Part shown: one piece after another, positions 13,890 to 58,174 of the stretch | Numbering within the stretch: position 1 is the first letter of the stretch | Layout of the letters: each line of letters begins with the position of its first letter | From: Rhizaria sp. SCN 62-66 | Lineage: Eukaryota | Length of the DNA: 64,000 nt | Assembly (NCBI GenBank): GCA_001724265.1 | Contig: MEDY01000284.1 | Location: 1-64,000 of the forward strand | Direction of reading: 5' to 3' | Translations under genes and position numbers: made by a program | Notes under the pieces: generated by a model | Databases searched by the model: none | Seen by the model: the letters and a program-made list of their open reading frames with translations, nothing else | Told to the model about the DNA's origin: nothing

Positions 13890-14009
13890 TTAATTGGTGT
13901 TATCTTTGCCCTTCGCGTTGCTGTTGCTCTTGCCATTGCCGCTGCCGTCGCCAAACCATTTGGCCTGGCCCTTGCTGCGCCACAGCGACTTCGCGTTCTT
14001 ATTGCCGCC

Positions 14010-14055
<46 letters not shown>

Positions 14056-17000
14056 TTGTTGTTGTTGTTGTAGTTGTTGGTCGCACCATCACCGCTGTCG
14101 TTGCCGCTCCCAGCACTGTCGCTGACGCTGCCGTTGCCGGTGCCGTTGCCGTTGCGGCCGCCACTGCGGCTGCCGCCGCGGCCGGCGCTGGCCGTCGCGT
14201 TGGGCGCCGGCGCGGTGGCGATCGCCCACAGCGCCGCGCCCTTAGCGCGCACGTTGGCGACGAAAGCCTGCAGTTGCGCGGCCTCGGCGGCGCGCACGGG
14301 CGTCATCGAGGGGAACTTGCGGGTAAATGTGGTCTGTTCCAGCCGCTCCAGCGCCGCGCTCGCCTGCGCGGCGTCGGCGAAGGGCTATTCCGACGCGGCC
14401 GTGGTCAGCGACGGGTAGGGAGACCGCGCCTGCGTCGGGCCGTCGGCGTCAGCGGCCGCCGCGGACCGCTGCTGCTGCTGCTGCTGCGGCTGCTGCTGCT
14501 GGTTGTTCTGGAACAGCTGCAGCTGCTGCATCTGCATGTGGTGCAGCTGCTGGTGCTCCAGCTCGCGCTGCTGGAGACCGTCCGCAAGCACGGTGGCCTC
14601 CTCCTCGGCGGCCACTACGTCTTCGAGCCAGTTGGCCAGCGCCTCAACCTCCACGGCCGTGGCCTGCGCCGCGCGCCGCGCGCCCGTGTCCGGCCCGGCA
14701 GCGGCAGCCGCAGCCGCGGCCGCGCCGTCGCCAGCGGAGGTCGCGGTGCCGCAGCCGCGTTGCAGCGAGGCGAGCGCGAGCTTGAGCGCGCGGTCCGCGG
14801 CCGTGAGCAGCGAGGCGATGTCGCCGGCCTCGAGACGCAGGCGCACGCGCACGGGCGTGGGCAGCGCCGACAGGGTCGCCAGCGCGCAAGCCGCCGCGGC
14901 CGTCGACGACGGCGGCGGCGCGTAGGGCCCCGTCGTGTCGCGCGGCGCGAAGCTGCGGGCGCGCGCGTAGACGTGGTGCCGCGCCGCGCGCTGGCTGCCG
15001 CGGCCGCTCAATGAGACAGAAGAGCCCGCGCCCGCGCTCTCAGCAGCAGTGAGAGCGACATAGTTGTAGACCGTGGCGGCGTTGGCAGAGTCGGCGTCGG
15101 CGTCGGCGTCGGCGTTGGCGTCGGGCGGCGGCAGACCGAGTGCCTGCGCCGAGAGCCTGTGGAAGGCGACCGAGCCGTTGAGCTGCACACGCGCAAAGCG
15201 TCCGAGCCCCGCACTCTTCCCCACATTCTCCCCCACGCCCACGCCCATGCCCATGCCTTCATTGTCGCTACCACTGAGGCTGCCGTTGCCGCTGCCGGTC
15301 GCAATGTTGATGCCGGCGAAGTCGGCGGCCGTCTGCATGAGCGACGCGGCCGTGAGCAGGCGCGAAAGCACGAGCGCCTCGCGGCATGCGCGCAGCTCGT
15401 ACGCGCCCGACGCAAGCGTGCGCCGCACCTCCACTGCATCGCTGCGCTTCAGCTTCCGCTGCCGCCGCAGCGACGCCACAGCGGACGCCGACATGTCGGC
15501 CTCCTCGACCGAGAGCGTGACGTACGTGTTGACCGTGGCGCGCGCGATGGCACGCGACCAGGACCAGGACGAGTAGGGCATCGACGTGCCCACCTGCCGC
15601 GCGGTCTGTGCCGCCAATAAAGCGGCGGCGGCGGCGTCGTGCGTGGCGTCGCCGCTCTGCGCACTGCCGCCGTTGTTGCTCGCATTGGCGCCTGCTGCGT
15701 CGCTCGCGCGCGCGCTCTCGTGACTCGCGCTGGCGGCGTAGCTACCGTTCGCGCTCCCAATGGTGTCCTTGCCGGAAGCGCCCGACGGCGTGGGGTAGCG
15801 CGTGGAGCAAAAGAACGAGAGCGTGTCCGCGAAGGCCTGGCCCCACGACGCCGGCGCACCGGCCGCAGAGAACGCAGCGTCGTCGCTCAAGCCCGCCGAG
15901 GCCGATACGGCGCCGGCGCTGGCGGCGGCCTCGGTCGCGGCGGCCGTCAGCGTCGCCTGCCACATGCGCATCGCGGGGCGCGTGTTGCCGCTGCGGAGCT
16001 CTGCGACGACGACACGCGCCACCGCAATGATCGGCACGGCGTCCAGCGACAGCGCGGCCATGCGCAGACTCAGCTCCGAGCTCGCGTTCGCGGCGTCAGC
16101 ATTCGCGGCGTCGGCATTTGCGGCGGCCGCGCTGCCGTCGTCCTCGCGCCCGCTCTCGCCCGCGGTGTCGAGCTCGGCGCTGGGCTCGGCCGTGGTCTCC
16201 GGGCTGGCACTCTTGTTGGTGAGCGCGGTGTCGCCCGTTGCGGCGGTGACGGTAGGCGGCAGCATGCGTGCGGCCATCGCGGCCGTGTCGGCGGCCACGT
16301 GCATCGGCGTCGTCTCGCTCACTGCAAGCCCGCTCGCACGCACACTCGCGCTTGCGCTCTCGCTCGTGTTGGTGCTGCTTGTGCTGGCGCTGCTGGCGTT
16401 GCGGGCAGCGAGCGCTGCGTGGTGCGCCTGCGCGGCGGCGAGCGCAGACGCGGCGCCGGGACCACCGATGACGAGCGCCCATCCGGGCCAGCTGCGCAGT
16501 GCCGAGAGCTCAGACACCATGTGCGCGCGCGCCAGCGCCGCCGCGCACGCGCCCAGCGCCGTGTGAGGGAGCACCGCGGCCGTGGGTGCAGAGGGCGCAG
16601 CGGCGCGGGCCTGCGCGGCCACGGCCACGGCCTTGGCGGCAGCGTGCGGCAACGGCGGCAGCAGACGCGCCAGGAACCAGAAGTAGGCGTTTTGGGCCCC
16701 GACCGAGGGCGGCGCGCTGGCGGGGCCGCCGAGGCGCGGCGACAGCAGCGCCGGCAGCGTGACGCCCGCGGCCGCGCACAGGTGCATCTGCAGGTGCAGC
16801 GACAGCGCCGCGCCCGGGGACACGCATGGCACGGCGGACGAGTCCGCGGCCGCCGCGGAGGCGACGGCACGCGCGGCGGCCTGGGGCCCCTTGCGGCCGT
16901 GCGCGGCGTAGAGCGCGCGCGCGCGGGCCAGGAAGCGCGCTGCGCCGCCGTCGGGGTGTCTGCAGCCGCCGCAGCAGTCGCGCGAGCACGTGGCGCCCGG

Positions 17001-20000
17001 CACTGCAACCGACACCGCCGCGCCGCTGCTACTGCTACTGCTACTCGTGTTGCTGTTGCTGTTGCTGTTGCTGTTGCAGCAGCCGGGTGCGGAGAAGACG
17101 AGCTCATCATCGAGCACGCCCAGCAGCGAGGCCGCCACGGTCGACGCTGGCACGGTGCTGGTGGCGAGCGCGGCGGGCGAGTCGCCCAGCGCTGGCGCCA
17201 GCGCCGCGGCCGCCGACGCGTTGGCGACTGCGCGCTGCGCCGACACCGCAAGCGCGGCGGGCACGACCGGCGCCGCCGCGGCCGTGGCTTCAAGCGCCGA
17301 GACAAGCGCGACGGAGAACAGCGGGGAGCGCGCGCGCGGCAGCGCCAGGGTCGTCACAAGCTGCGCAGTGGCAGAGACTGAACCTGCGTTCGCGCCCGCG
17401 TCAGCGTCTGCGTCTGAAGAGACGGTTGACGACGTCGTGGAGTCTGCAGGCGCAGACGCTGTCGCCGCGAGCATAAGCGCCTCCGAGAGCGCGCCGCACG
17501 CGCCGTCGACGCCGCGCGTGGCAAAGATCTCGCCCGTGTAATGGTTCCCTTTAGCGGCGTTGGCGGCGGCAGTGGAAGTGGCTCCGGCGGCGGCGACGGC
17601 CGAGGCCGAGCGCGCGGGCAACGCTGCGTACGCCGTGGCAGGGACGTCGATCGCGCTGATGGCGCACCGCATCAGCGCCAGCGCCGAGCGCGCGGTCAGC
17701 GGCACGCACACGTAGGGCGCCAGCGCGGGTGCCAGCGCAGTCGCGGCGCCGTCAGCGGCCGCGGCGCCCTCGCCAGCCGTCGCGGCGGTCGCGGCCGCGG
17801 TCAGGGCCGCGGAGGGGCGCAGGTGCGGCGGCAGGTATGGGCTGTTAGCGGGCAGCCAGATGGCGGGCGGCGCGGGCGCGACGGTTTTGTGCATCAGCGG
17901 CGAGAGCAGACGCAGCGCGGACCGCGGCTGCAGCGGCCGCAGTGGCGGCGGCACCGTCGCTGGGTAGCTCATCACCACGGGCGCCGCGCCGGAGTCAGCA
18001 GCGCTGGACTCCGCAGACACTGGCGCAGTGGACGCGGATGAGGAGCCGAGGGCCGAGGCGAGAGCGGGGTTCCCGGCGGGCGTGAGGCAGCGCTCCACGG
18101 GCCACGGCCACTGCTGCGCACCCTGTGACTGCGATTGCAATGTGTAGCTGCAGACGCCGTCGTCGTTGTTGTCAAGGTTTTCGGCGAAGAAGTCGATGCC
18201 GGAGCTGGGGTGCTCGACGATGGCCACGCCGCCAGGACCCACGCGCGCCAGCGACGGCACAGTCGGAATCACCGGCGGCCGCGTCGACGCCGCCGCCGCA
18301 GACTGCGCTTGCGACGCGACACCGGCAGCCTTCTCGCTGCTCGCGTCGCCGCTGGCGATGTTAGCGCCGCCGCTGCGGGCGCGGAGACGTGCGCGGGCGC
18401 GCGCGCGGGCGGCCGCGGCTGCGGTGTCGTCCGCGGCCGCGGCGTGTGCACCAAGGATCTTGAGCAGGAGCCCGCGGCCGGTGAGCCCCATCTGCTGTGC
18501 ACGCTGCTGCCAGTGCCAGCGCGCGCGCACGGAGCGGAACTGGCGCGACTGCCCAGCCTCGCCCAGCTGCACCAGCACGGGCTTCCCGCGCGCGTCACTG
18601 CTGCCGCTGTTGTTGTTGTTGTCAGCGGTGCTGTTGTTGTCGGTGACGAGGACGACGCGGAAGCACGCGGTGAGGAGCGCGGCGCGGTGCTGCTGCGAGA
18701 GCGCCAGCGCGGGCGACAGCAGCACGTCCAGCGCCATCTGCACCGGGTGCGCCGCGCTCACCGACACAGCGGACACGGACACTGGCGCTGCGGATACCTG
18801 CCCGGATGAACCGACGGCACCGGCACCGACACCGGTGCCAGAGACGGGGTCGGCAGTGGAGACACTGCGGCGCGAGCCAGTGCCAGCGGCGTCAGCGCCG
18901 CCGCGTGCAGCAGCCTCTGAAGCGGCGACGGCGAAGCTAGCGGCGGCGGGGTCTGCGCCGAGCGGGGCGGCGACGGCCAGCGTCTGCGGCTGCAGCGGCA
19001 CGATGGTGTGCTCGCCGCGCGTCAGACAGCCCTCGTCGGGCAGCGCGGCGGCCGCGGCGTAGGGTGGCGCGATGGCGCTCGCCTCGGCCGCGGACAGCGG
19101 ACGCAGGATCTCGACCGGCTCGCGTGCCCACTCGGCCACCAGTGCTTCGTACTCCGCGGTCGCCTCCGCCGCAGCCGCGGCTGCAGCCGCAGCTGCCGAG
19201 GACTCTGCAGCCGACTCCGCAGCAACAGTCTCCGCGGACGCGGTGGCGGCGGCAGCGGTGTCCGCGCTCGCGCCAGCGCCCGGTGGGCCAGCAGCAGCAC
19301 CAGCAGCAGTCTCAGTCTCCGGCGCCGGCGCTAGAGATGGCGCTGGCGCAGGCGTGAGCGCGGTGACTGCGACCCACTCGTTGCCGGAGCCCCCGACGGG
19401 GCGCGGCGGCCGACGCTCGCCCGCCGCGGCCGCGTGTGACGCCGCGGCGGCCGCGGCGGCGGCGACCGACGCCGGCGCAGCGACCGCAGCGGCCGCGGCG
19501 GCGGCAGCGGTGCGCGCGCCGAGCGTGGGGAGCTCGTAGGCAAGCAGCGCGCCGGGCACGAGTGCGGCGATGGCCTCGGCGGCGAGCGCGGCGGCCGCGC
19601 GCGGGCGCTCAAGGCGGTCAAAGGACGTGATGAGCGCGAGCTGGGAGCGCAGTGGCAGCGAGCGGAAGGCGGCAGGGAGCACCGTCGCGACGACGGTTGA
19701 CGCGGGAGCGCTTGAGACGGGGGGGCGGTTACGGTTACTGCGACTGCTGCCGCTGCTGCTGCTGTTGTTAGCGCTTGTGCGGGCGCGACTGTTACCGCAG
19801 TCGTTGCCGTCCTTGTTATTGGCATCGTTGCTGTTGTTGCCGTCGTCGTTGTTGTGGCCGTTGTCGGTGCTGCCGGCATCCGCGGAGCTGGGAGTCTGGC
19901 CCAGACTGTCGCTGCCGCCGTTGCTGGCGGCCGAGATGGGGACGAAAAGCCCGCTCGACTGCAGCGGCGACTCGAGCACCACGGCGCACAGCGGCGCAGA

Positions 20001-23000
20001 CGGCCGGTGCCACGCAGGGTTCCCAACCAGCACAGTCTTCTCGCTCTCCGCAATCTCAGTCACAGTCTCCATCTTAGCGTCAGCGTCAGCGTCAGCGTCA
20101 TCAGCTGAGGCTGCTGCACGGGCTGATGCGGCGCGGCGGGCCAGCAGCGGCGCGGGCGCCCAGGGCCGAGCGTAGAGCGGCCGCAGCACGGTCGCGGCGA
20201 CGTCGCTGGCGTGAGCGTGCAGCATCGGATGCGCGAGCGCGGCCGCGAGCGCGCTCTTGCTCAGGTGCGCGTTGAGCTCCGTGATCGCGCTCGCGAGGGC
20301 AGCCTCGCGCTCCGCGGCCGTCGTCGCGGCGTCCGACTGCAGGGACGGCAGGGGCGCGAGCGAGATGTGTGTGGCGATGATGGCGTCGGCGGTGGTGACG
20401 GGCACCGCGCACGCGCCGCCGCCGAGGCCCGCACCCTGCGACGCGCCCACAAACACCACGTTCGCGCTCTCAGTCGCAGCGCTACCGACGCCACGGCTGT
20501 CACCGTCAATGTCGTTGTTAGTGCTGGTGCTGGTGTTGCGGGGAATGGGGATGGACCAGCGCGAGCGCAGGCGGAGCTCATCCGCGTCCACCGCCGCCGC
20601 CGCGCGCGCCGCGCTGCCGCCGCCGTTGCCGACCGCCTCCGCGAGCGACATGACGCTGTCCACCACCGCAGCCTGCGCCGCCGCTGCCGCGGCCGCGGTG
20701 CGCGAGCGCGCCGCGCCCGCAGCCTTGCTCCCGCGGCCGCCGCGGCCAGTCAGCCCGTGGCCGTATTTGGAGCCGTGTTTGCGGCCGAGCTGCGCCATGG
20801 CATCCAGCACCTGGCCGCGCACCGCGCGCTCGCTCGCAGCGCCGCCGCCGCCAGCCGCCTCCGTCGCCCCGTCCGCCTCCGCCTCTGCCGTTGCAGCGGC
20901 CGCGGCCGCGGCTGCTGTGGCGTCGGCAAGGGCTTCGTCGCGGAACACGACCTCGAACTGCGCAGTGTTTGACCCTGCCGCACGCAGCGCGGCGACGGTC
21001 GCGGCCGCGTCGTCGGCCTCCCCGCACTGGCCGTAGGCGCTGGCGAGCGAGGTGAGCGTGACGTGCGAAGCCCGCACGCCCGCGGCGGCCATGTTGGCGG
21101 CCACGAGCGAGATCACGTCCGCGCCTGCGCCACAGCGCGCGAGCCCCGTGAGGAGCAGGTTGTACGTCACGGCGTCGGGCGCGGCGCCACTCTGCACCAT
21201 CGAGTCGGTAAACGCCACTGCGCGGTCCGCGCGACCGGCCTTAAGGTAGCCGTTAATGACAAGGTTCCACGTCTGCGTGTCCGGCAGCAACCCTGCGCGC
21301 GGGAAGAGCGCACAGTGCGCGTCGAGCGCGGCCCAGTCGCCCTGCGCCGAGGCGAGCGTGATGAGCGCGTTGACCATGAGCGTGTCTGGCACAAGCCCCG
21401 CGGAGAGGCTCACGGCCACGGGCGACAGCAGCCGCTGCAGTGCGTGGCCGCCGACGCGGAACGCCAGCGACGCCGCGGGTGCCGCGGCCGCCGCCACGGC
21501 GGCGGACTTCACGGCAGCGAGATTACTGCCGGCGGCGGCATGGGGGCTGTGGGGCGAGTTGTTCGTCAGAGCCTCGGCCTCGGCGGCCTCAACCTCGGCC
21601 ACGGCGGCCGCCACGGCGGCCACGGTCCACTTGCCCGCGCCCTTGCCGGCGATCACGCTCACGCTCTCCCCAGCGCTGGTGCCGGCCACAGCGACGCCAG
21701 CGGCCGCGACCGGAGAGGCTGCGGCGTCCGCGGCGGCCATCCCGCCCGCGATGGCGCCCGTGACAGTGTCCGCGAGCGCGCGCGCGTCAGAGTTGACGGC
21801 GTCCACAAGTGACTCGAGCGCACCGGCACGCGGACCCGCAGGCTGCGGCTGGCCCGCAGGCTGCGGCTGCGCGGGGGACTGCGCTTGACCGGGAGTCTGC
21901 TGCTGCTGCACGTGTTGCTGCTGCAGGTGGTGCAGCTGCGGTTGCTGCTGATGCTCGCTCTTGCTCTTGTGTTGTCCGAGCGTGCCCGAGGAGGCGAAAG
22001 TGCCGAAACTGAGTGCATCGAGGTCAAAGTCGTTGTTGCTCGAGTAGTCGGCCTCGTCAAGCCCGCGCGCGAGCAGCTCCAGCACAGACTCAGCCGTCAG
22101 CGCGCCCGTCTGCATGCCAGCGCCAGCGCCAGCGCGCGAGGGTTGATCAAGGCCGAAACCGAAGCCCGAGCCCGCGGCCCCAGGCAGCGCACGATCGGGG
22201 TCAGCGCGCGCCTTGGCCTGATCATAGGCCTGCGTGACGGCCACGGACGCCGCGCTGGCGGCCGCGGCGGCCTCGGCGTTGGACGCAGGCGCGGAGTCGA
22301 ACTCCCTGTTGAGCTGCGAGTGCAGCGCCTTAACCCCGGCCTCGGCCAGCTGCGGCAGCGCAGTGTGAGAGAAAGCAGAAGACGCGGAGGAGGATGAGGA
22401 GTCCTGGCGCAGCGCGTGGGCCGCGGCGGTCTGCACGTGGAGCTGCGCGTGCGCGTGTTCCTGCGCCGTGAGCACGAGCTTGCGCAGTTTGCGCGCGCGC
22501 GTGTTGTGCATCATCGCGCGTAAGTTGGGCCGCGCCGCGTTAAGCAGCGCGTCTGCGATGCGCGCGCCCGCGACCAGCGCCGGCCCGCCCGCGGCCGCGC
22601 ATCCAAAGATGAGGAGCGTGTAGAGCGCAGGCGAGGGCTGCCGCACGTGGCGCGTGTACATAGGAAGCAGCGCGATCGCGTCACCCAGCGCGCCCGAGTC
22701 GATGAGGCCGCGCCCCAGAGTCGTGAAAGTGTGCTCCGAGGGGCGCAACACTGGGCCGGAGCCAGACTTCCTCTCAGCTGGAAAGCGTTTGTCGCTGTCG
22801 TCGGGCACAGTGGCGAGCATGCGCTGGAACACCGCACGCGCACGCGTCATGTCCCCTTCGGCGACAAAGCTGGCCAGCAACACGTTCGTGGTCTGCGTTG
22901 TCGGCTGCACGCCCGCGGCCGTCATGCGCGCCAACGTCGCGCGGGCGCCCGCGGGATCCCCACGCGTCACGCACGCGTGCGCGAGGATGGCGTACGACGC

Positions 23001-23838
23001 GGCAGAGAGCGCGACGCCAGTGTCCGCGGCGACCCCCGTGGCCCCCGCCCCCGTAGTATGAAGCGCAACGGCGTCGCGGAAGGCGTCGAAGCGCTCCCAC
23101 TCGCGCTCAGCGGCGAGTCCCGAGAGGACGGTGTTGACGGTGACGGCGTCTGGCGCGGCGCCCTGCGCGGCCATCTGCTCCAGCGCGGCGGGCACGGCGT
23201 CGAAGAGGCGCCGCGAGACGAGCGCGCGCAGGTGCAGGTTGAACGCGAAGGGCGAGGGCCGGTAGCCGCGGAGGACGAGCTGGTGCAGCAGTGTGGCCGA
23301 GGTCGCGACGTCACCGCGCATGGCGGCCTCCTCGAGTTCGCGCAGGAACGCCGAGTCAACAGGCGCCGGCAGCGGCACGCCGGGCCCGCCGCCCGCCGCG
23401 GCGGCGGCGCCCGCGGCGTCGGAGCTGTCACCGCTGCCGCTGCCGCTGCCGCTGCCGCTGCTGTTGCCGTTAGTCAGGGGCCGCTTGCGCCGGTTCGTGG
23501 TCGCGCCCTGCTGCGACCTCGACTGAGACCGCTTCGCTGCATCAGCGTGGGGATCGGTGTCGGTGGCGCCGGCGCCGGCGCCGTCGGTGGCGGCGGCGGC
23601 GGCGGCAACGGCCGCAATGGCCGAGGTAGTCGCTGCGTCTGGCCGCAGCCGGCGCTGCATCTGCCGGCGCTCGTCGAAGCTCTGCTCGATGCGGCGGCGC
23701 GACATCGACGACGCGTGCAGGCGCGCTGTGTCCGAGGCAAACCCGCGCCGCGGCGCCGCCGTCAGCACGGCGCCCACGCTGCTGGCGCTAGGACGAGTGT
23801 GAGAGAGTGTGTGACTGCTGCTGGCGCTGCTGCTGCTG

Positions 23839-23869
<31 letters not shown>

Positions 23870-24152
23870 TGTATTGGTGATGTGTCGCGCGACTGCTGGT
23901 GCTGAGGGTGAGTGGAGGGTTCTGGGAGAGAGAAGAGCTGGCGGGCGCGGGGGCCGGCAACGCGAAGTCGACGGAAGAAAAAGCAGCAACAGCAGGCGCG
24001 GGCAGCGACGGGGCAGCAGCTGCAGATGTGGCGGAGACGGCCGCGGCGGTTGCAGAGCCTGAGACTGAAGCTGAGGCCGCTGCAGCAGAGTGCTGGGCCG
24101 CTGCGGACGCAGTCGATGCCGCGATGGCCGAAAGCCGGGCGCGGAACAACAT
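13890..24152 (-). CDS. Giant pentatricopeptide-repeat (PPR) protein, probably mitochondrial, ~3420 aa, containing one in-frame TAG (14387-14385)
   Basis: Two PPR clusters: PSPFAFNLHLRAL, PDAVTVNTVLSGL, PTTQTTNVLLASF, PSEHTFTTL, PSPALYTLLI; and PDTLMVNALIT, PDTQTWNLVINGYLKAG, PDAVTYNLLLTGL. MLFRARLSAIAAS resembles a transit peptide. The frame stays open past the TAG to TAA at 13892-13890. Confidence 0.8.
14011..14078. repeat. Compound (CTG)n(TTG)n microsatellite encoding poly-Asn then poly-Ser on the minus strand
   Basis: ctgctgctg...tgttgttgttg is directly visible. It lies in the PPR segment downstream of the in-frame TAG. Confidence 0.9.
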
Positions 24153-24657
24153 AGCGGGCGCTGAGGAAAACAAGAAAAAGTGTCGTGTGGTAGCGCGAGC
24201 GCGCTTTCGGGATAGCTTGAGAGGAAGAAGGAGAAAAGGCTGCAGGGAAGAGTTGGAAGTGGTTCCGTGAGGATCAGAACAGCGAGTCGAAAAATTGTCG
24301 AGTTGAAGGCCAAAATATCCGTTAATAGCAGTTTTAAAAGCAAATCAGAATGCACACTAACAAGAAAAAATCAATGCAGTGATAACTTTTTCACCAAGTC
24401 TCGGTAACCGCGCCGTAAGGCCCCAAACTGACCCGCGATGCGGACGTTCCGTACGGCGACTCTCGAGGTGCGCCTATGTGGCGAGATGCTGAGAAAGTAG
24501 CTAAATCGATCGACTTTGAGAAGGTCTACGTCATCCAGACTGCGTCAGATTCAAACATAGCACAGCTGGGCTTATTTAATTATGGCTTAATTTTACTTTA
24601 TTTAATTCTTATCTCTTCTATTTTTTTCTATCTTGTGCTATCATTCCTCATAGCCCC

Positions 24658-34300: not shown

Positions 34301-34513
34301 GAGCTCGCGCTCGACGGTGGAAAACCGCGCCTGCCGCGCCACGCGGCCGCGGTGCAGCAGCCGGCGCGTTGGCAGGTAGGCGGGCACGACGGGAAGCCGG
34401 TCCTCCTTGAACTTGAAGCGCGCGCAGAGGGCGATGGCCGCGGTGACGGACGCGGGCAGCGCGCCGCTGCTGCGGTGGGACGGGCGCGGGGGTGGCTTCG
34501 GGGCAGCAGGAGT

Positions 34514-34566
<53 letters not shown>

Positions 34567-36966: not shown

Positions 36967-39900
36967 TTACATCCAGCTAAGCGCCGTTGCCAGCAATGAC
37001 ACGACAGTCTCTCGCTCCCGCACCCGACGGTTCCGCCTCCGCGCTCCGTCACAAATCGCCTCAACATCAGCGACGTCAGTTGCTGCTGCAGCAGGAGTGA
37101 CATTTTCAGTAGCTGAAGCGGCAGCGAGACAGACCTGAGCCACGCACAGCGATCGCTTGAGCTCTTCCCGTGTCCGCACCAGCAGCAGCGTCCACGCCTT
37201 GTCATCAGTCTCTGCGTGCGTCACTGCAGCCGGCGCGCGTAGCTGCTGTCGCGGCTTCTGCAGCAGCGCGTGGCGGAGCGCACATACGAGTAGCGCGACC
37301 GCGGTGGAACTGCCGTGCGCTGCTGCGAGCCATAGCGCACTGCCCGCCAGCGGGGGCGGGCGCCGCAGCAGCAGCGCTTCTGCGTGCCGCGCCACAAACG
37401 CAGAGTCAACAATAGAGGCCGCAGCGCTGCCGCGCGCAGGAGTGAGTGTGAGCACTGTGGTGGCCGTTGCGCCCGGAACAACAGAGCACGGGCGCAGTAG
37501 TAGCTGCACGGTTTCCGTTGCAGTTGCGGCAGCGGCTAACGATGCTGCAGCAGTTGCGTCAGGGCTGCTGCTGTGGGCGCTGCGATCAACGCACGCAACC
37601 ACTTTATCGACCCAACGCGTCACTGCAGCAACAGAGTCAGCAGTAGCGATTGCCTCAGCGCTCGCTCTGGCGACTGCGGTGGCAAGCGCACCCGAGAGCC
37701 CTGTAAGTACAGCAAGCGTCGCAAGCGCCCGCCGAGCCGCATGATCACGGCGCGAACGCCGAGACTGGGACTTCGAATGAGGCTGTGACCGTGCAGCAAG
37801 CGTGTGCTCGCGCACGGTGAGATAAGATAGCTTCGCGAATAATGCCTCAGTAAGTGTGGCACGCAGCGGCGCGGCCCAGGGTAAAGTCTCCGCGGCAGGG
37901 ACAGCGGCAGACAGCGCGGCCTCTTCCAAGAGCTCACTGTCATCCAAGTCACTGTCGCTGCCGTTGTCATTCGCGGCTGCTGGACGTTCATCGCTGTCGC
38001 TGTCACTACAGGTGCCACAGGGATGACCGCAGCTGTCGTCCCGATCACAGTCGCTGTGGCAGGCGTACCAGTTGTCGTTGTCCTCATCATCAGCCTGCTG
38101 CTCATGATCCACGTCGCCGTCCCCGTCCCACAGTCCTGCGCCGCCCAACGGGCTCTGGTGTTGCTGCTTGTGGAAGTCGTTGTCAGCGTCGTGCGCAGCA
38201 GTGTAGTCGTGCCACAGAGTCACACCACGCGCCCCCCTTAAACTCGCACTCGCAGTCGTTTGATGCGGAGTCGAAGTGTTTAAATGACCCCAATCGTTCT
38301 CCTGCGCAGCCCCGAGACGTTCTGCGCGGCCAGTCACCGCGGCCTCGTACGCGCTCACTGGCACCAAGTCCCCGCGCAGCGCAAGCCCAAACAAATCGCC
38401 AGCAAGCGCGTGCACGGCCGCCGTGCGCGCCTCGTCCGCCGCGGCCGCGGCCGCCACAGCACCCGCGGGCACGGACACCACTCGGCTGCTGTGACCGCGG
38501 ACGGCGCTGTCTACAGCTGCGACTGCGGGGACGAGCAGGGGCCAGACAAGCGACGCGGCGGCGCGCGCGGCGGCCGCGGCGGCAAGCGCGGCGGCAGCCT
38601 CGATTAGCGCCAAGAGTGCAGGTTTAAGCGGGGACGCAGACAGTGCGCGCGGCGCCAGCAGAGCCAGCGGCGTCAACGGCGGCGCAGGGACTGATGACTG
38701 CGCGATAGACGAGGCCAAGATAGATGCTGAGGCAAGAGCGCTGTGCATCGCAACACGGTGGATAAACGATTGCGATTGCGGCTGTAAGTGTGATTTTGTA
38801 GGCGCGAAACTGTGCACATTGACACGCGCAGTGTTTGTGGGCAGAAGAAAACTCACAGACGCGTCGACAACGCCTGCTAACACCGCAGCCACGGGGTCTG
38901 TCGCAGCTACCGACTGCCCACGGTCACTGCGGCAACGTTGCTCACAGTCACTGAGCGCTGCGACAAGCGGTGCAAGCGCGAGTAGCAGCGGCGTGCGCTG
39001 CGGCGGCAGCGGCACACTCACAGTTTCTTCAAGACCTACACTGGAGCTGGTTTTAGCGCTATCACTGCGAGTAAACGCGGTTCCCGCTGCGGTTGCGGGG
39101 GCCGGGGTGAGGAAGGCGCTGGCCCGCGCCACAGCCTTGGCCGGCAGCAGCGCCGCCGCGGTAGCCTCGGCCACTGACGACGGCACGCGCGCACCCTCAG
39201 CGGTGAAGGGAGAAAGAGGCAACAAGTGCGTGGCAAGCAGCGCAGCGCCAAGTCCCACCGCAGCCTCTTCAGCCTCGTCATCAAAGCTGTCACTCTCGCC
39301 GTCGCCGTCACGGCCGCTGCAGACGGCAGCAAGCGCGGCGGTCGTTGTGAGCGCCACGCGCGCGCCAGTGAGCAAAAGCGCGCACTGCGCGCGGTTGCAG
39401 AGCACGCGGCCGAGCAGCGCACACAGCGAGGCCGCTTCAGCAACGTCACCCGCCAGGCCAACACACGCAGATGATGCAGCATCGCTCAGATCGCTCTTTG
39501 GAGCAGCGCCGTTCTACGTCGCGTCTTCAGGACTCAACCAAGAGCGCATAGAGCGGCGAGTGACAGAGCGCAGGCGCGCTGCAACACGTGCGGCGGCTGC
39601 GGCATACGCGGCGCCCGCGCGCGCGTACTGGCGCTGCGCAAAGAGCTCGCCAGCACTGCCGACGCCAGTCAAACGCGCCTCTGTCGTTTTCACGAACGCT
39701 GTGGGCGGCTCACTCTCGTCGTCGTTGTCACCGTGCTCAGGCGTAGGAGTCGCGGGAGCAACTGCAAGTGCAACAGCAAGCGCGAGAGCGGACAAAACAT
39801 GCGGCGAAGTGTGCACTGTGGCCGCTGAAGCAACGCCCCAGCGAGCAAGTTCGCTTTCAAGAGTTGCCAGCACCGCGGTTTCTGCCGCTGATAAGGTTGC

Positions 39901-42387
39901 TGTTGTTGTAGAAGCGCACAGGAGCAGAGAAACACAGAGTGCCGCATTGCAGGCACTGATTAGCGAGGACAGGAGCGCAGTGTAGGTCAAGTGACTGGAA
40001 ACCGCCGCAACATTGACGGAGGCAGGACCAGTCGCAGCTGCTGTGGCAACTGCTGCAGCGCGGAGCGAAGCAAGAGCGTCAGCCGCAACACGCGCGTTGG
40101 CCACAGCGACGGCCACAGCGGCGCTCAGTGCGGCTGTAGTTTCATCGCGGGGGCGCAGTGCTGGCGCAAGCAGCGTTGCAAGTGTTAACGAGTTGCTCTT
40201 TGCGGCCGCCAGCAGCGCCAGCGCGCGCCACTCACCCTCAGCGGCTGCACCGGCCGCGGTAGTGGTGGCACTCGCTGTCGCTGTGGCTGTATTGACTGTA
40301 TAAGCAACAGGCGGGCCCGCCACGGAGACCACCGCGGCGGCTGCAATTGTGGCGGCGAGCGAAGGGCTGTACGCACTCAGTGGAGCGCTGCCACTCGCCG
40401 CAGCCGACGGGCCCGCAGTGAGCGCAGCCGTGGGGAAGAGCGGCACGGCGCGCAGTAACCGAGCGAAAGACGCGCCTGCGCGCACAGTCCCGCCCACGGC
40501 CTCTGCGGGGGCGAGAGTGGTGCCGCGCACGGTCACCCCAACAGTCGCTTCAAGCGCGGACGCAGCTGCCGCAGTTGCAGACGCAGCAGCGTTGGCGCCA
40601 GTGAGCTTGTTGTCCGCGTTGCCATTGGAGTTTGCGGCGGCGACTGCAGCTGCAATCAGCAGTGCTGTCTCAAAGCTGCCTGTGCCCGCGGGCGCCAATG
40701 CTGTCGCGCAGTGCGTGGCGTAATGTGTCACAGGAGTGGAGTGCGTGATTGAGTGCGTGGGCGCGGATTGCAGACAGAGAGCGAGCGGAGTCGCCACAGG
40801 TGCAGCAAACAGGCGCCGCAGATGTCCTGCAGTGCAGCGTATACAGGGGCAGCGGCAAGCGCCATCGCGCGCGCATGCCTTGCTCTTGCCCTTGTCCTTG
40901 CCTTCGCGAACAGTTGTGCTCGCGCCCAAGCACTCGCTTGTACAGTCACTTTCATACTCGCACTCTTCACACTTCTTCTTGTGTTCGAGGCCACCGTGCG
41001 TATCACTGGCTTCATCACGCCGCACGGTCACGCAAGCACTCGCATTGTCAGTGACCGTGGCCATGGCCCGTGCCCAGCGTCGCAGCGCTGTACGGTGCGC
41101 GCCGCTCGGCGGCCGCGGGTCAGCACGCGCCCGTGCTGGGTCAAGCGAAGTCACCGCAAGCGCGAGCCGCGCCGCGGTGCCCGCGCCGCCGGGCCCGCCC
41201 GCGCCAGCCCACGCCGCGGCCGCGGCCAGCGCGGCCGCCGCCGCGGCCGCCAAGGCCGGGCCCGCAGCCGCGCGCTGGCTCGCGGCGGNNNNNNNNNNNN
41301 NNNNNNNNNNNNGGCTCGCGGCGGCCGCCGTGGTGGACGCAGCGGAGGAGGATGAGGAGGACTGCAGCAGCAGCGCGAGCAGCAGCGGCGGCAGCAGCGG
41401 GGTCGACCGCGCAAGAGCCGACGCAGCCAGCGCCGCCTCGGGCGCGGGACCCTGCTGCCCGTCCACCGCGGCCATCGCAGCGCTCCCGGCTCCGGCTCTG
41501 GCTGCTGCTGCGGTTGCAGCAGGAAGGTACGGCGCGAGCGCGTGTGGGGCCGCGGCAGCGAGCAGCAGCGCGGCGGCGGGCCGCGGAGACGGGTGCGCCG
41601 TCAGCGCCGCGGCCAAAAGCGGGACCAACAACGCGTCGCGCGGCGCACCAGAAGGCAGTAACACCTCCACAAGCGTCTGCGGCGACACCGCAACAGGAGC
41701 AGTTGCATTCGCAGTAGCAGCAACAGTTGATGAGGGGGCGTAAACTGAAGGTGCGGGCGGTGGTGGTGCGGCGGCAGCAAACTCGGCCTGCGCGCGGACG
41801 CGGGCGCGTGTGTATGCGGCAAGAGCACGTGCGAGCACCGGTACTGACACTGGCACTGGCACTGACGCTGACGCAGGCGCTGGCACTGACGCTGGCGCTG
41901 GTGTTGGCGCTGACGCAGGCGTCGGCGCTGAGACTGGCGCTGAGTCCGCGCTTACAAGACCAGCAGCAGTACTGTTCGCAGTTCCACTAACAGTGGCGCT
42001 CGCAGTAGCGCTGGGGCAAAAAAGCGCAGCGAGCGATCGTAGGGTAGACTCAGTGAAGCGTGAGAGTCGGCAGTCGCCACCGCCGAACCCATAGCCCTCA
42101 CAGTCTGAAGAGCCGGCGTTGTTGTTCTGCGCGGCAACAAACGCAGCAAGCGCGGCGCTGTCGCCACGACCCGACATCGAGCCTGTATTGGCATAAGAGA
42201 CGGCATTGCCCGTGGTGGCGTCAAGGTCCGCTTCAGTCGCAGGCTCAAGGCTGGAATTTGACGAGAGTGGGGGCAGCGGCGGCATTGTGTCGGGCACGGC
42301 AGCCTCGATGCGGCGGCGCAGCTCCGCGGGGTCACCCCAGCGGCCAGCGTCGGCCAGCGACTTGAACACTTCGAACGGGGTCGACAT
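36967..42387 (-). CDS. Large Ala-rich hypothetical protein (~1800 aa) containing one in-frame TAG (39516-39514) and an assembly gap
   Basis: The ORFs 39514..42414 and 36967..39405 are in the same frame, separated only by a TAG and 36 open codons. ATG at 42387 (MSTPFEVF), stop TAA. No family recognised. Confidence 0.65.
41289..41312. other. Assembly gap (24 N), probably a 12-bp overlap
   Basis: ggctcgcggcgg occurs immediately on both sides of the Ns. Confidence 0.85.
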
Positions 42388-43322
42388 GGAGCGCGCGGCA
42401 ACCTTGGCGGACAACGCAGAGTTCGCTCCGGAGTCTGGGTTTGGCAGAGGTTAACGTGATTGGATTGTGAAAAGGAAGTTCGTCAGTATGAGAAATATAA
42501 AACAAATCATAAATACAAAACAAAACCCCGCATCATAATAAGCGTGAACAGACTCTGACGATCAATTCGCCTCAGGATAGCAATATTCGATTTGGTACAT
42601 GTACTTGATGGCACACTCCCCTCCACCTTACGGTCACAATGCCATAGCAATAAGCAGGATTGTAACAGAAAAGAGAGTTAAACATGGAGAATCGAATGGA
42701 AGTGTATTCAAATCAAGTTTTGTTGCAAAACAGTTGTCTTAAACGTGGAGACAGGATCTTCGTAGAGTGAGCCGAGCTGCTTGTTGTCTTTAGGGAGGAA
42801 AAGAAAAAGCAATTGGAACTTGTTGTTAGTACGAGGTACAGGTAAGATGCAGTGAGGGGGAGGTGGTGGAACCCGACGCGTTGCGTCACCACAGCAGACA
42901 TAGCAATGCGAATCAGATTCAACAGACCAGATCTACCAGCAGATAACGCGCGACAATGTGGACGTGCTCCATTAATCACTCGGTCTCTCACACCGTCATC
43001 AACCAGCCACACGTGAACAGACAGCGCACACACCTCCACATACACCCAGGAGGGCGGAGCAGAGCGGCGAGAAAACGCCTGCAATTGCTACTCTGTTCTA
43101 AAAAACAACGAATGAACTAACGCGTTGAGAGTGTTGATGTTCATGGTTGAAGTCTCAGTCGTGATTGCGTGTTTTTGCGTGCAAGTGCGTATGAACGAGT
43201 GTGATGTCAGCTTTCGTTTGTGGTTCGTTTGCTTGATATATTATAATTATGATAGTGAGGGACGAGGGGATCAATAACACCATTATCCATCACTTGTTGT
43301 GAGTGCAAGGTGCGTGCATGAG

Positions 43323-44390: not shown

Positions 44391-45157
44391 TGTCCACACT
44401 CTGTTGGGGTGTAGCAGCAAAAACAAAAAAGAGAGAACACACAAGGGTGAGTGAGTGTGACGACAAAGACAGACAGGGAATTGGAGTCAGAATACCCATC
44501 AATCAAGTGATACGCGTTTAAAACCAAGATAGTAAATCTAAATGTTAGTCATGACACATGATTGCAGGCAATATGCACGCGTATGAGCTTTAGTTCTGGA
44601 TATGGACTGCTGTTGTAACGTAAAGAGGCCAGCAGAGTCAGAGCCTGGCCAAGCGACACAAAGACACCAGTTCCAGTCCACATCTTCCCTGACCGGCCCA
44701 ATAAAACAAAGATATAAGCGCAACACATTTACTAATCCAAATTCACGAACTTCGCACGCAGTCTCCGCTGCTCTCTGCGCCGCTGCAGGTAATGCAAGTT
44801 CCTCCTTCAGTTTGGCTCGGTCGGTTGTGGGTGGCGACGAGGGCTCTCGTGGTGAGCGACCGTGAGTCGCAGGGCATTCGACCGGTCAGTCCGCTCGAAA
44901 GTAAGCCGCTTTGGGTGGGCGACTAAAACAAAGCTCGTTCTCGACTTGGCGTGCGTCAATTGAATTGCTGTTGATGTATTAGTTTTATTCAAAGCATGCT
45001 ATGTTGTGTGTTTTTCTTTTGACTGGCAACTCGCCGCTTTGTGCCGCTGTGGATGCCTGGTCAGGACCTCCCTCACTCTCCTTTTCGACCTCTCACTGTG
45101 CCCCCCCCCGCCCGTCTTTTCTCCCTTTCTTTGCCGTCGTCTGCAGTGTGTGACAAC

Positions 45158-53271: not shown

Positions 53272-54656
53272 TCAACCCATGCGCTGCTGCTGCTGTTGCT
53301 GTTGCTGTTGCTGGTATCCATTCTGAAACCCTTGCTGATACGTGTACTGCTGTCCTAGTCCCTGTCCCTGTGCCGGTGCGAGTTGCTGCTGTTGTTGCTG
53401 CTGTTGCTGCTGCTGCTGTTGCTGCTGCTGCTGTTGCTGCTGCTGATGTTGTAAGTGCTGGTCATGGCCGCCCCCGCTGCCCGCACAGTAGTGGTTGCGC
53501 GCATCGTCGATATCAAAACTGCGCAGCGTGGCCAGCCTGCGGCGGCGCTGCACGTTCTCGTGCCGCGCCAACGCCAGCTCGGCGCGCTTGCGGTCGGCGT
53601 CGCCCGCGTTGAGCCACACATCGCGCTCCACCATCCACTTGGCGTCGGCCGCGTTGGGGCCCGTCCACGCGGGCCGGCCGCGGCGCCGCACCTCGGCCTC
53701 GAGCCGCCAGCGGCGTTGCACCATGGCTTCGGCGTCGTAGGGGCACGTGTGCGACAGCGGCTGGTTGTGGGAGCCCGCGGAGAGGCGCGACTTGGCTTCG
53801 GACGGGTTTGAGTACCGCCACAGCGCGCGCTCGCTCTGTTGCTGCTGCTGCTGCTGCTGCTGTTGATTGTTCGCGTGCGGGTGGAGCCCGGCGAGAAAGG
53901 TGTCCGTGTCGGCGCGGCGGCGCGTCATGCGTCGGCGGTAGTCGTCGAGCGGCGACTGGCCCTGGAAGTCGACCTCGGTCGGCCGGCGCTCTAACTCGTG
54001 CCCGCGCGCCGTCAGCGACGCCGCGGACGACACGGGCACCAGGCGCGCGCTCGACGACGACGCGGAGGGCGCGCCGTGCACAGTGTACACGGGCCCGTCC
54101 GCGCTGCTGCTGCTGTTGTTGTTGCCAGCAATGCGCGCGTACGAGGCGGGTGGCGGCCCGTATCGGCTGGGCACGGCGTCGGCGCCGTACGTCGCGGCCG
54201 CGGGCGTGGACATGCCGCGCTGCGTGCGCGCGGGGTTGCAATGCGCGGGCGGGAGACGCTCCATCTCGAGCGTGCCGGCGAGTTGGCGGCGCGCAAGCTC
54301 AGGAAAGAGCTTGACGGAGCGAAACTCATCGATGCGACGCAGCTTCGCAGCCCACTGCTGTTGCTGCGCGTCCGCGCGGCACGCCTCATCCGCAACAAAA
54401 GCGGCGCGGCGGGCGTCCTGGTTCTCCTTCAGGATGCGACGCTGCTCGCGCTGAGCAGGAACATAGCAAGAGCAAGAGCAGAGGAAGTAAAAGCGAGTGG
54501 AGGGTGAGTTACGCGGAACTTTGGAACAGAAGAGAGGACTTTGAGAGATTAACGGGACAAGGAACGTACCATTTGGTCACGATGCTCCTCAAGCAGCATT
54601 AGGTATGCCTGATACTCGTGGTCTTGCGGCCCTCGCGCGATCTGATGAGAGGCCAT
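53272..54656 (-). CDS. Hypothetical coiled-coil/polyQ protein; exons 54656-54570 and 54450-53272
   Basis: MASHQIARG...HRDQM|REQRRILKENQ is joined by a GTACGT...CAG intron (54569-54451), in frame with ORF 53272..54264. Stop TGA. Confidence 0.7.
53380..53446. repeat. (CAG/CAA)n polyQ-encoding repeat
   Basis: A tgctgc/tgttgc run is directly visible. Confidence 0.8.
54451..54569 (-). other. Spliceosomal intron (GTACGT...CAG)
   Basis: Removal gives a phase-0 join of two coding segments. Confidence 0.75.
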
Positions 54657-55072
54657 GCTGCGATGTAACAAAGTAAAGTGCAGTGTCAGCGAAGTGACCA
54701 GTGAGCGTCGCAGCGAGGGGCATTGAATACACAATTTACAAAGCATATACAAAAAAAAAACATCTCACCAAAAAACGCCGTTCATAGCGTATATACGAAT
54801 CAAGGCGAAGATACATTTTGTCAAAGTCGGCATGCTGAAAACACGGTCGAGCAGGGCCAGCGGCGAAACGGCTGGTGCACTGAGAGACGCGGGTTTTTGT
54901 TTTTGCGGCGCTGCGTGAATTTGATCGTCAAAGTCGCACACCCGTGTAAATTTGGATAAACAACGAACACTACTAGCTGTCCATAATTCAACATTTGTAA
55001 GAGCCACCAATATAAGGGACTTGTACTGCTTGAAACGTGCCACTCTGTCTGCCGGCTTTGAGCGCTTCACCG

Positions 55073-56566
55073 ATGTCGACGTATGGCCCCCGAGACGTAC
55101 AGGCGGCCGTGATGGAGCTGCGCGCACACCCCAAACCGCGTCCACAGACCTTCACCAATACTTATGAGGAGACTGTCACCGCACACCCCACGCTCGCCGC
55201 GACGCTTTTCTCTGCCGACGAGGCCCGTTCCCTGCTTGCAACGCAAAAGTCAGCGTACGTTCCCCCGAGCTCTCTGTTAGTACTTGCTTTCTCGCTCTTC
55301 ACTGCCATTGACGCAAGAAAACTCACAATTCGCGACTTAATTGCCTTCATTTTCTTCTGCCACAACAGTACTCTGCGGTCAAAACCGCTTCAGTTTTCCG
55401 GCTCGGCATCGCTGACTGGCACTGCCGGCTCGCTGCCACCGATGTCTCACACGGGCGCCGACCTCAGCGACCTCGCCGACTTGTCGCGCGCGTCGCCACA
55501 CTCTGCGGATGCGCGTCGGCGGCACGCGGCGTACCGCGAGGCGTCGCAGCAGCGCGTGCACGACATCCAGGTGCAGATCAAGGCCGCCGAGGCCGCGGCG
55601 ACGCAGCGCGAGGACGCCGCTCTCTCTCGCGCGCTTGACGCACTGCACGGCTAGCGCGCCTTTGTCTCGGGCGTCGGCGTGTACCTCGCGCAGCACGACG
55701 AAGCGCTGGCGCGGCGCCGCGAGACGCTGCACAAGGACTGGTCGCGCACCGTGTTCGACGAATTGCAGCAGCAGGTGCAGCGCGGGCTCGACGCGCGCAG
55801 CACGGCCGCCATCGAGCGCCGCCGCCGTGACGCGCTGCAGCACTACCTGGACGCGAGCAACCGCAAGGCGCACGTTGGCGGCGTCGTGCTGGACGACGAG
55901 GAGCGGCTCGGCGTCGACGCCCCCGCCGCGCGCGCGCACGCGGCCGCCATCAAGGTCGACGTGTCGCGGCTGCAAGACCCCACGCAGCGCGGGCTCGACG
56001 CCATCCGCCGCGAGGAGCGCCTGCTGCGCTCATTCAACTCCGCTGCGACCGGTGGCGGTGAGCTGAGCGACGCCGCAGCGGCGGGCGCAGCCGTGGGCGG
56101 GATCGACGCGTTAGCACCGCGGTCGATGCTGCCGGTGACGGCGTGGGCGCAGGTGCGGCAGACTCAGGGCCGCTACGCAGAGCAGGCCGACGCGGCCGAG
56201 CTCGCGCGCCAGGACCCGCGGTGGGGCGCCGGCGCGGGCCCGCGGCCGCTGCGGCTGCGCGCGACGGGGCAGGCGCACCCGGCGACGTTCGCGTCCTCGG
56301 TGGCGATGGATCACTTTACGCCCGCGGCCGAGCTCGCGGTCTCGGACCCCCAGGTGCAGCGCGCCACGCGCGCGCGCGAGCTGGCGCTGGCACGGAGGGC
56401 CGCGCGCAAGGCCGCGCTGGGCCCTGGCGCCGCGGGCGCGGAGGACGAGGGCGACACGGCTGCCGTCGTCGACCACTCGGCCGCCTACGCCAACAACGAA
56501 GGCCGCGGACGCGGCGGCCGCGTCGGCGCGGGCACTGGCGGCGTGTCTTCGATCACCACCCTGTGA
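55073..56566 (+). CDS. FAM228-like protein; exons 55073-55254 and 55369-56566; contains one in-frame TAG (55652-55654)
   Basis: ATG at 55073 and a GTACGT...CAG intron at 55255-55368. The frame continues LHG*RAFVSGVGVYLAQHDEALARRRETLHKDWSRTVFDELQQQV, which resembles the FAM228 conserved region from memory. Stop TGA. Confidence 0.6.
55255..55368 (+). other. Spliceosomal intron (GTACGT...CAG), 114 nt, no in-frame stop
   Basis: AT/pyrimidine-rich island with the consensus donor and acceptor. Confidence 0.7.
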
Positions 56567-56885
56567 GACTGCTGTTGCGCTCTTGTTATGTCGATGTGGT
56601 TCCCGACGTTGCAGTCTTTTGTCCAGCCGAATCGGTCAGTTCAAGCTTCACTTGTGTTGGGGATACGATTGCATTTTTCCTTTTTCCGTTCGTAGTTTCA
56701 TTCTGTATTAGTGTTGTTGTTTTGTTCACAACACAACTTTCAATATTCGTCTAGATAGCATTTTTCGTCTTAACCATTGTTTGGGCCAGTCTCATCCCAA
56801 GATTATTCGTGTTACACGATGCTCATACATAAAATACATTCATCATAACCACAACATTGATGAATTTCCGTTGCTTGGAGCAATT

Positions 56886-58174
56886 TCACCACCAGGAAGA
56901 AAACCAGCCCTTGTCGGACGCTGTTGCATTCTGTGCTTGCTGCTGCAGCTGCTGCAGCGCGGAGGCCTCACGCTGCGTCCTGAGCGCGCGCGCGCGGCGG
57001 GCGAGCTCACGCAGCTCCTCAGCGGGCACCACGGTGCCACCGGGCCCGCGCAGCCGGCCGTTGACGTCGTAGGCGTAGCCCGGCGGCAGCAGCGCCAGTG
57101 GGAGGCACTTGCGCACAGCACCGACAGGAGCGCTTGTACTCGCACTCGCAGCGGGGGCGGCAGCGGACTTGACGGGACCTGCGTTGGCAGCGTTGGAGAC
57201 AACATTGACATTTGCGTTGATGTTGGCAGTGGTGCGGACGGGTTGCAGCGGCGTCATTGCGGGGCCGCGCGGGGCCTTGCTGCGGCTAGTTCCCGCGCCA
57301 CGCGGTGTCGCAGGCGCCACCGCAGCAGCAACATGAGCAACAACAGCAGCGGCAACATGGGCACTGCGAGGCGGTGTGCTGAGCTGCTGCTGCTGCTGTT
57401 GCTGGTGCTGCTGCAGGCGACCATGGGTGTTGGCCGTGCCAGTCGCAGTTGCAGTGGCCGCTGAGGGCAGATGAGTGGCCCCACGGCGCAGCGCGGGCGT
57501 GCCAAGCGTGCGCGGCGTGCGCGCAGGCGTCTTTTTGCTGCCGCTATTGCACGCGCCAATAGCAGCACCACTGAGGCCCTTCATCGGCGTCTTGTGCGGC
57601 GTGCGCAGCGGGGTTGATGCACCCACACTCACAGAGCCACTGTTAGAGTGCGCGTTCGCAGAAGCGTTAGGAGCGGAGTCAGCGGCCTTGGGCACGAGCA
57701 GCAGGCCGCACGGCGAGCGCTGCAGTGCGCGGCCGTCCTAAGTCGTGACATAAGCGGCGCGCGGCGGCGTCGCCAGGCACTCGCGCTTGCCGGGGGTCTG
57801 CTGGCCGTTTCTCTCGTTGCAGCCGCTCTCGCTGCCGCTGTTATGGGTCTTGCTCACTTTCCTGGCGCCACCAGGCGTGGCCATAGCGCCGTTGTTGTTG
57901 TTGGGGCGGCCACCGGCGGCAGCGATGGCCTTGAGTGCGGCGGCGTGCGCGTCGCGACGGCGCGCGGCGTCTTCGCGCTCCTTGCGGAAGGCCAGAAATC
58001 GCTCTGCGGCCGCAAATTGCGCCACGAACTCGGCGAACACGGCGAAGAACTGCGGCCACGACAGCACCGCGGGCGCGCCCAGCGACGCGGCGGCCGAGGC
58101 GGAGAGGCAGCCTGCGCGCGCAGGCAGCACGGGCACAGCCGCCCACGCGGCCGCCAGTCCGCTCCCAGCGCCCG

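Follow-up and report, generated by a model that had tools for sequence, protein, structure and literature searches.

Here we report that, in a 64,000-nucleotide stretch of DNA (the window) from contig MEDY01000284.1 of GenBank assembly GCA_001724265.1, four genes each carry a single in-frame TAG codon and none of 17 gene ends is a TAG, and we propose that TAG probably serves as a rare sense codon while TAA and TGA act as stops. The window is nuclear DNA of a GC-rich, intron-poor, uncultured eukaryote of bioreactor and wastewater metagenomes. The observation itself, that is the TAGs, the reading frame around them and the gene ends, is real and beyond chance, and one of the TAGs lies within a conserved protein domain, where exactly one column of the family alignment is left for it.

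TAG codons within genes and at their ends

The four genes encode a large PPR-repeat protein, an alanine-rich hypothetical protein, a FAM228-like protein and a formin (Table 1). A preliminary description of this DNA had reported one in-frame TAG in each, with the context of every TAG, the number of open codons beyond it, and closure of the frames in TAA, TAA, TGA and TGA where AT-rich DNA begins; all of this was recovered, and low-GC segments lie at the ends of the TAG-bearing open reading frames (ORFs) at 13325-13930, 36658-36981 and 56597-56912. Across the delimited coding frames of the window (17,321 codons) there were four TAG, no TAA and no TGA codons, as the same description had held, and no frameshifts, including in the ORFs of 3015 and 3485 codons. 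Such a record is unlike that of decaying genes or of an error-prone assembly.

In the PPR gene, matches to the Pfam families PPR_2, PPR_1, PPR and PPR_3 lie upstream of the TAG, the coding frame (-,2) is unbroken over 13891-24105, and the part downstream of the TAG has a GC content at third codon positions (GC3) of 0.88. The hypothetical gene stays in one frame (-,0) from end to end, and its codon signal is weaker; a run of 24 N at 41289-41312 (eight codons, in frame) within it reflects either masking or a gap in the scaffold. The formin FH2 profile is divided between two exons: positions 6-236 match the one upstream of the intron, and positions 241-351 the one downstream, which is in another frame.

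The coding frame was followed across each TAG with a codon-usage model trained on six long ORF segments of the same window. Among these were the stretch of the PPR gene that precedes the TAG and the first exon of the formin gene; the segments downstream of the TAGs do not overlap the training set. Downstream of all four TAGs the in-phase frame scored best (0.59 bits per codon for PPR, 0.12 for the hypothetical gene, 0.34 for the FAM228-like gene and 0.19 for formin), with the other forward frames negative (-0.91 and -0.66 for PPR) and the reverse frames at or below 0.07. When 60-codon windows were taken on both sides of the four sites (-120 to -61, -60 to -1, +1 to +60 and +61 to +120), the in-phase frame outscored the other five frames in all 16, and a sliding scan followed a single unbroken frame across each TAG. 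Codon bias downstream of the TAGs was as strong as upstream. These results support TAGs that sit in frame within coding sequence, and speak against sites in introns, between genes or at the ends of genes.

They also bear on whether the TAGs are true gene ends, each followed by a separate gene or exon that happens to share the frame. Four in 17 is a normal share of TAG among stops, and long open frames come easily at 70-80% GC (the window holds 153 ORFs of at least 150 amino acids). Yet the best coding frame and strand downstream were those upstream at all four TAGs, the AT-rich spacer that separates every other gene pair is missing from the regions flanking the TAGs, and no ATG is near, the first Met codon downstream standing at +27 (PPR), +256 (hypothetical), +158 (FAM228-like) and +52 (formin). 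As the FAM228 domain moreover runs across its TAG (see below), we regard separate genes as hardly credible.

We tallied the gene ends of the window independently and arrived, like the preliminary description, at 17 ends, comprising 11 TAA, six TGA and no TAG. Nor was a TAG found shortly upstream of the terminal TAA or TGA at any gene end in the window, so that no TAG gene end has been overlooked. The sample is small and drawn from this window: for a TAG share of 20% among stops the probability of no TAG at 17 ends is 0.8^17, about 0.02, and for a share of 10% it is 0.9^17, about 0.17. Within the same window TAA and TGA terminate genes and never occur in frame, and this stop usage (TAA over TGA, no TAG, at a genome GC3 of about 0.8) resembles that of published UAG-only lineages. 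One end is set by its neighbour: a small gene at 28654-28989(+), lying between two larger genes, encodes a 111-residue protein with an N-terminus that looks by eye like a signal peptide and itself ends in TAA, and because of this gene the TAA at 28270 is a real gene end and not the start of an intron.

Three introns were identified, in the formin, FAM228-like and PNO1 genes; all are AT-rich, and the genes are thus not all intronless. Their signals are unusually strict, with G before the 5' junction and GTACG(T/A) after it, and ACAG at the 3' end; they measure 114-205 nucleotides at a GC content of 0.36-0.46, between exons of 65-80% GC. This GTACG signature could help to bin contigs of the organism.

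Could the TAGs then lie within short GC-rich introns, either as YAG acceptors or internally? TAG does end in AG, the genome does splice, and introns that preserve the frame do occur, as the FAM228-like intron is a multiple of three (114 nucleotides) and has no in-frame stop. The intron signature was absent from all four TAG neighbourhoods, however, and GC content around the TAGs (40-nucleotide windows within 200 nucleotides of each) is 0.57-0.85, against 0.36-0.46 in the real introns, which upholds the earlier remark that the sites sit in no intron-like sequence. Upstream of the PPR TAG there is no GT[AG][ACT]G within 400 nucleotides, and upstream of the FAM228 TAG the sole such motif belongs to the real intron, at -397. 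Two candidates were rejected. In the hypothetical gene, GTACG stands 112 nucleotides upstream of the TAG, and the segment it would define is 115 nucleotides long, not a multiple of three, and 70% GC; in the formin gene, GTGAG stands 117 nucleotides upstream and gives a 120-nucleotide in-frame candidate, but one that is 67% GC and scores as coding. In the FAM228-like protein the residues on both sides of the TAG align column for column, leaving nothing removable. We consider introns at these sites highly improbable.

The TAG column of the FAM228-like gene

One of the four TAGs can be placed by homology, that in the gene which the preliminary description had called FAM228-like. The label is borne out by a precomputed match to PF28229 on the window's own downstream piece of the protein and by an Atlas feature search in which 20 of 30 matches were FAM228 clusters (best score 0.92, 182 shared features). 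An exhaustive HMMER search, for which the TAG was entered as Q solely to let the search run through, returned 162 proteins at E ≤ 1e-3. Among the 150 of these 162 that were listed, two are the window's own pieces and 148 are non-self, and in 135 of the 148 the best stretch crosses residue 194, the position of the TAG. A word-indexed protein search with the same query recovered only the window's own piece.

We sidestepped the inserted Q by aligning 29 homologues without the query and comparing each half of the protein to the resulting profile separately with hhalign. The 94 residues before the TAG matched profile columns 65-111 (probability 89.5%, E 2e-6) and the 303 residues after it matched columns 115-312 (E 6.7e-35). 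The unaligned Gly before the TAG then falls on column 112 and the Arg after it on column 114, so that exactly one column remains for the TAG, which stands between ...LDALHG and RAFVSGV... in the protein. Since the two halves fit the profile with a single column left between them, this TAG can belong neither to an intron nor to a frameshift or gene boundary. The first downstream ATG, at codon +158, lies past the start of the conserved domain. Alignment of the TAG to residues of orthologues was thus obtained by homology at one of the four sites.

The same gene illustrates what conventional annotation makes of such a codon. It is present as two catalogue proteins cut at the TAG, P0004 (residues 1-193) and P0002 (residues 203-497, beginning at GTG), a split that shows mis-annotation by a gene caller using translation table 11. 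A FAM228 homologue with 32% identity (P0009) and a PNO1 homologue with 58% identity (P0162) both list a longest contig of 313,956 bp; the two genes probably lie on one contig of a related organism, as both do in this window, and the FAM228 gene there is uninterrupted, with Glu at the TAG column.

Which amino acid might TAG encode? Among the 148 non-self homologues listed, the TAG column holds Glu in 56, Gly in 25, Asn in 16, Gln in nine, a gap in nine, Arg in seven, Asp in six and a few others, with Leu, Trp and Tyr in none. In the 30-sequence alignment 15 of the 29 homologues have Glu there, among them all five of the closest (29-47% identity). The column, variable and polar, leans to Glu or another polar residue, would be compatible with Gln, and speaks weakly against Leu, Trp and Tyr. 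One alignable site does not fix the residue. The preliminary description was right that the identity could not be fixed from the window; its suggestion of Gln is not favoured by the column (nine Gln against 56 Glu among the 148 listed).

TAG as a probable rare sense codon

We propose that TAG would be decoded as an amino acid at low frequency, four times in about 17,300 codons, with TAA and TGA ending all genes. By analogy with known UAG-only codes, a tRNA with anticodon CUA would read UAG but not UAA, and eRF1 would recognise UAG poorly; both of these, like the decoding of TAG itself, are here inferred. The in-frame TAGs, the FAM228 column and the lack of TAG at 17 gene ends all favour the proposal, which the preliminary description had also made. 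A further strand of its argument, that the internal stops are exclusively TAG, is weak. The codons of this genome that lie one step from a stop are mostly those that yield TAG (CAG 531, GAG 847, TCG 345 and AAG 285, with few A-ending codons), such that at this codon usage TAG would be the outcome of 69-71% of random single-base nonsense mutations, and the probability that four of four internal stops would be TAG by random mutation is 0.22-0.26. Because TAG is what random nonsense would be expected to produce here, the absence of internal TAA and TGA, though factually correct, carries little weight.

Several other points weigh against the proposal. There are four sites in total, in 4 of 17 genes (24%, close to the typical share of TAG among stop codons), at a density of 0.24 per gene that is more than 20 times lower than in the UAG-recoding rhizarian exLh. 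With the codon-frame and homology evidence set aside, a share of this size would let the TAGs pass for real stops. One of the four TAGs is alignable, and the other three fall in regions that are of low complexity or specific to the lineage: the regions around the PPR, hypothetical and formin TAGs had no detectable homologues and were placed in frame by the codon model alone, which was trained on ORFs of the same window that partly overlap the upstream windows tested. Pfam returned no family for the tails of the PPR protein and the formin or for the hypothetical protein; a homologue search with the hypothetical protein around its TAG gave no match, and a phmmer search of the PDB gave only a chance match (E 1.8). 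A possible resemblance of this region to a TPR repeat extending over the TAG is an impression that we give no weight. At the FAM228 column, the five closest homologues all have Glu, and since GAG is one step from TAG a plain nonsense mutation would look alike. No tRNA gene of any kind was found in the 64-kb window (ARAGORN and Rfam), nor is the eRF1 gene within it.

Under the standard code, the TAGs could be premature stops, as fixed nonsense alleles or in genes that have only lately become pseudogenes, or they could be errors in the consensus of a metagenome assembly; the coding signal downstream would then not yet have decayed. The mutational bias makes four TAGs out of four unremarkable, the FAM228 site is a single step from the Glu of its closest relatives, and the three other TAGs fall in low-complexity tails or linkers where truncation would perhaps be tolerated. 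Four of 17 genes would have been hit, however, without one frameshift or other stop in the 17,321 codons and with downstream codon bias undiminished; the FAM228-like protein would lose almost the whole of its conserved domain; and TAG would still be missing from all 17 true ends. A second metagenome contig (L001) carries the formin region including its TAG at 100% identity over 2108 nucleotides, with no differences, which argues against a consensus error at that site, although how independent the two assemblies are cannot be said. We judge nonsense alleles or errors unlikely.

A different route under the standard code would be RNA editing, either A-to-I, turning UAG into UGG (Trp), or U-to-C, turning it into CAG, or else programmed site-specific readthrough. 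Stage-specific A-to-I editing of premature UAG to UGG is reported from filamentous ascomycetes, where it concerns well under 1% of genes (PMC10776026, PMC11156358). According to PMC10776026, PMC11156358 and PMC5496914, fungal A-to-I editing prefers U at position -1 and often hits UAG, and 71 genes with premature stops are restored in Fusarium graminearum. A preference for UAG would account for the TAG-only pattern, and the genes described here resemble the restored ones, as far as these reports describe them, in having a genomic in-frame UAG in otherwise intact genes, with only UAG-type stops affected.

Such editing is known only from filamentous ascomycetes, however, and the best named matches to the PNO1 protein of the window are not from ascomycetes. 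Four genes out of 17 is a much higher proportion than 71 genes out of an entire fungal genome, and the FAM228 column holds no Trp and little Gln among the homologues listed. For readthrough, the four contexts have no common motif, the base 3' of TAG being C, A, C and G in turn, as had been noted at the outset. Editing and readthrough alike leave the absence of TAG from the 17 gene ends unexplained, and we find them rather improbable. A frameshift at the TAG is excluded at the FAM228 site by the column-for-column fit to the profile. Pyrrolysine-type recoding, which is not known in eukaryotes, was set aside.

A more specific form of the sense-codon proposal can be put forward tentatively, and with considerable doubt: that the window represents an unsampled non-ciliate lineage with a GC-rich genome, common enough in wastewater bioreactors for contigs of more than 60 kb to assemble, in which UAG has been uncoupled from UAA and is at an early stage of reassignment, possibly to Glu, while UAA and UGA would both still be stops. 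At a UAG frequency of about 0.2 per 1000 codons, the UAGs would then be mostly at tolerant sites. We did not find UAG as Glu with UAA and UGA both stops in the literature searched, nor any paper on a protist from wastewater or metagenomes that has such a UAG code, subscription journals and supplements having been outside the search.

The source genome and known UAG codes

Table 1. Genes, TAG codons and introns discussed in the text, with positions in the 64,000-nucleotide window
Feature	Position	Strand	Description
Large PPR-repeat protein gene	13890..24344	-	3485-codon stop-to-stop ORF with TAG read through; TAA end at 13890-13892
TAG no. 1 (PPR)	14385..14387	-	GAA-TAG-CCC; terminal TAA 164 codons on
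Ala-rich hypothetical protein gene	36967..42450	-	1828 codons with TAG read through; TAA end at 36967-36969
TAG no. 2 (hypothetical)	39514..39516	-	ACG-TAG-AAC; terminal TAA 848 codons on
FAM228-family gene	55073..56566	+	ATG 55073, intron 55255-55368, terminal TGA 56564-56566
FAM228-like intron	55255-55368	+	GTACGT...ACAG, 114 nucleotides, GC 0.46
TAG no. 3 (FAM228-like)	55652..55654	+	GGC-TAG-CGC; within conserved FAM228 domain; terminal TGA 303 codons on
Formin (FH2) gene	56886..61269	-	Two large exons, intron 58622-58769; TGA end at 56886-56888
TAG no. 4 (formin)	57738..57740	-	ACT-TAG-GAC; tail past FH2 domain; terminal TGA 283 codons on
Formin intron	58622-58769	-	GTACGA...TACAG, 148 nucleotides, GC 0.36
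PNO1 gene	62024..62963	+	Pfam KH_PNO1_2nd; two exons, intron 62638-62842, terminal TAA
PNO1 intron	62638-62842	+	GTACGT...ACAG, 205 nucleotides

The window alternates between GC-rich stretches (60-80% GC) and AT-rich ones (34-50% GC), and the GC-rich stretches are genes with eukaryotic domains by Pfam, namely PPR, formin FH2, cyclin, ankyrin-FYVE-synaptobrevin, TB2/DP1/HVA22, group XII phospholipase A2, GRIP and PNO1. The 12 listed sequencing runs that contain part of 52000-61900 come from bioreactor, wastewater and activated-sludge metagenomes; one of the 12 is a polyA metatranscriptome (0.32 of the sampled words of 52000-61900), an overlap of words that is no evidence on expression or on the TAGs. 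A metagenome scan for more DNA of the organism found only the contig identical to the window in the formin region, and a scan of genome contigs found only an irrelevant 34% match in a bacterial metagenome-assembled genome.

The best matches to the PNO1 protein are metagenome proteins (67% and 61% identity), and the named matches (50-60%) are spread over choanoflagellates, Capsaspora, early-diverging fungi, Amoebozoa, Rigifila, a rhizarian and a jakobid; they do not settle the lineage. Other genes add to the picture. At 43323-44486(-) there is a homologue of group XII secretory phospholipase A2 (Pfam PLA2G12, E 5.9e-15), and this match, with those to FAM228, JIP_LZII and teneurin-type EGF, may lend the gene set a holozoan flavour. 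A 1213-codon ORF at 31394-35035(-) joins ankyrin repeats, a FYVE zinc finger and a C-terminal synaptobrevin (R-SNARE) domain, a combination that, by impression, we take to be unusual. Finally, an ORF of more than 3015 codons at 1-9048(+), open past the 5' end of the window, runs for 9 kb without introns or stops; with weak coiled-coil and GRIP-domain matches at its C-terminus, it is probably a giant golgin.

Nuclear codes that split UAG from UAA bear on how a stop codon is captured, and they are very rare: two non-ciliate lineages and a few ciliates are described in PMC5304391 and PMC11687900. In the first of these lineages, the rhizarian exLh (Sainouroidea), UAG is reported to encode Leu, with UAA and UGA as stops; 384 in-frame UAGs were counted in 71 genes, mostly at conserved Leu positions, and the genes ended in 56 UAA and 15 UGA (PMC5304391). 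The eRF1 position that corresponds to human Leu69 is also considered for exLh in that paper. As described there, exLh is like the present case in that UAG is the only in-frame stop, that the ends are UAA and UGA with UAA preferred (56 to 15 there, 11 to 6 here), and that a non-ciliate protist is known solely from sequence data. It differs in the number of its UAGs (384 in 71 genes, against four in 17 here) and in their meaning, Leu being found in none of the 148 homologues listed at our alignable site; its evidence came from transcripts, going by the same text, whereas ours comes from genomic DNA alone. The PNO1 matches, in addition, show no tie to Rhizaria.

In the second lineage, the fornicate Iotanema spirale, UAG is reported as Gln with UAA as stop, and a tRNA(CUA) arising via one anticodon change has been proposed (PMC5304391); going by that text, the present case would again be a stop-to-sense change of UAG only in a non-ciliate. 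Unlike in Iotanema, Gln is not favoured at the informative site here (nine of 148 listed), and the present genome is GC-rich and, as far as can be told, unrelated.

Among ciliates, phyllopharyngeans read UAG as Leu or Gln with UAA as the preferred stop, suppressor tRNA(CUA) genes being reported from two genomes (PMC11687900), and an uncultured ciliate reportedly assigns different amino acids to UAA and UAG (PMC10553269). With these the present case would have in common that the meaning of UAG is uncoupled from that of UAA, and that cases were mined from metagenome or environmental assemblies (PMC11687900, PMC10553269). The window differs from ciliates in its genes of 60-80% GC and up to 10 kb, a contig of at least 64 kb and ordinary AT-rich spliceosomal introns. 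Large GC-rich genes with AT-rich spliceosomal introns on a long contig are unlike ciliate macronuclear DNA. Unlike ascomycete editing, too, the present case affects 4 of 17 genes, shows no Trp at the aligned column among the 148 homologues listed and lacks TAG at gene ends.

If confirmed, TAG as a sense codon in this organism would add an independent case from another type of genome, one that is GC-rich, with large genes and few introns, and its very low codon frequency would maybe represent the early stage debated by codon-capture and ambiguous-intermediate models. Since gene callers cut genes at TAG, the organism's proteins would be mis-annotated in public metagenome catalogues. Set beside exLh, Iotanema and the ciliates, it would, if confirmed, join the very small known class of UAG-only nuclear codes, in which Glu would be a new meaning.

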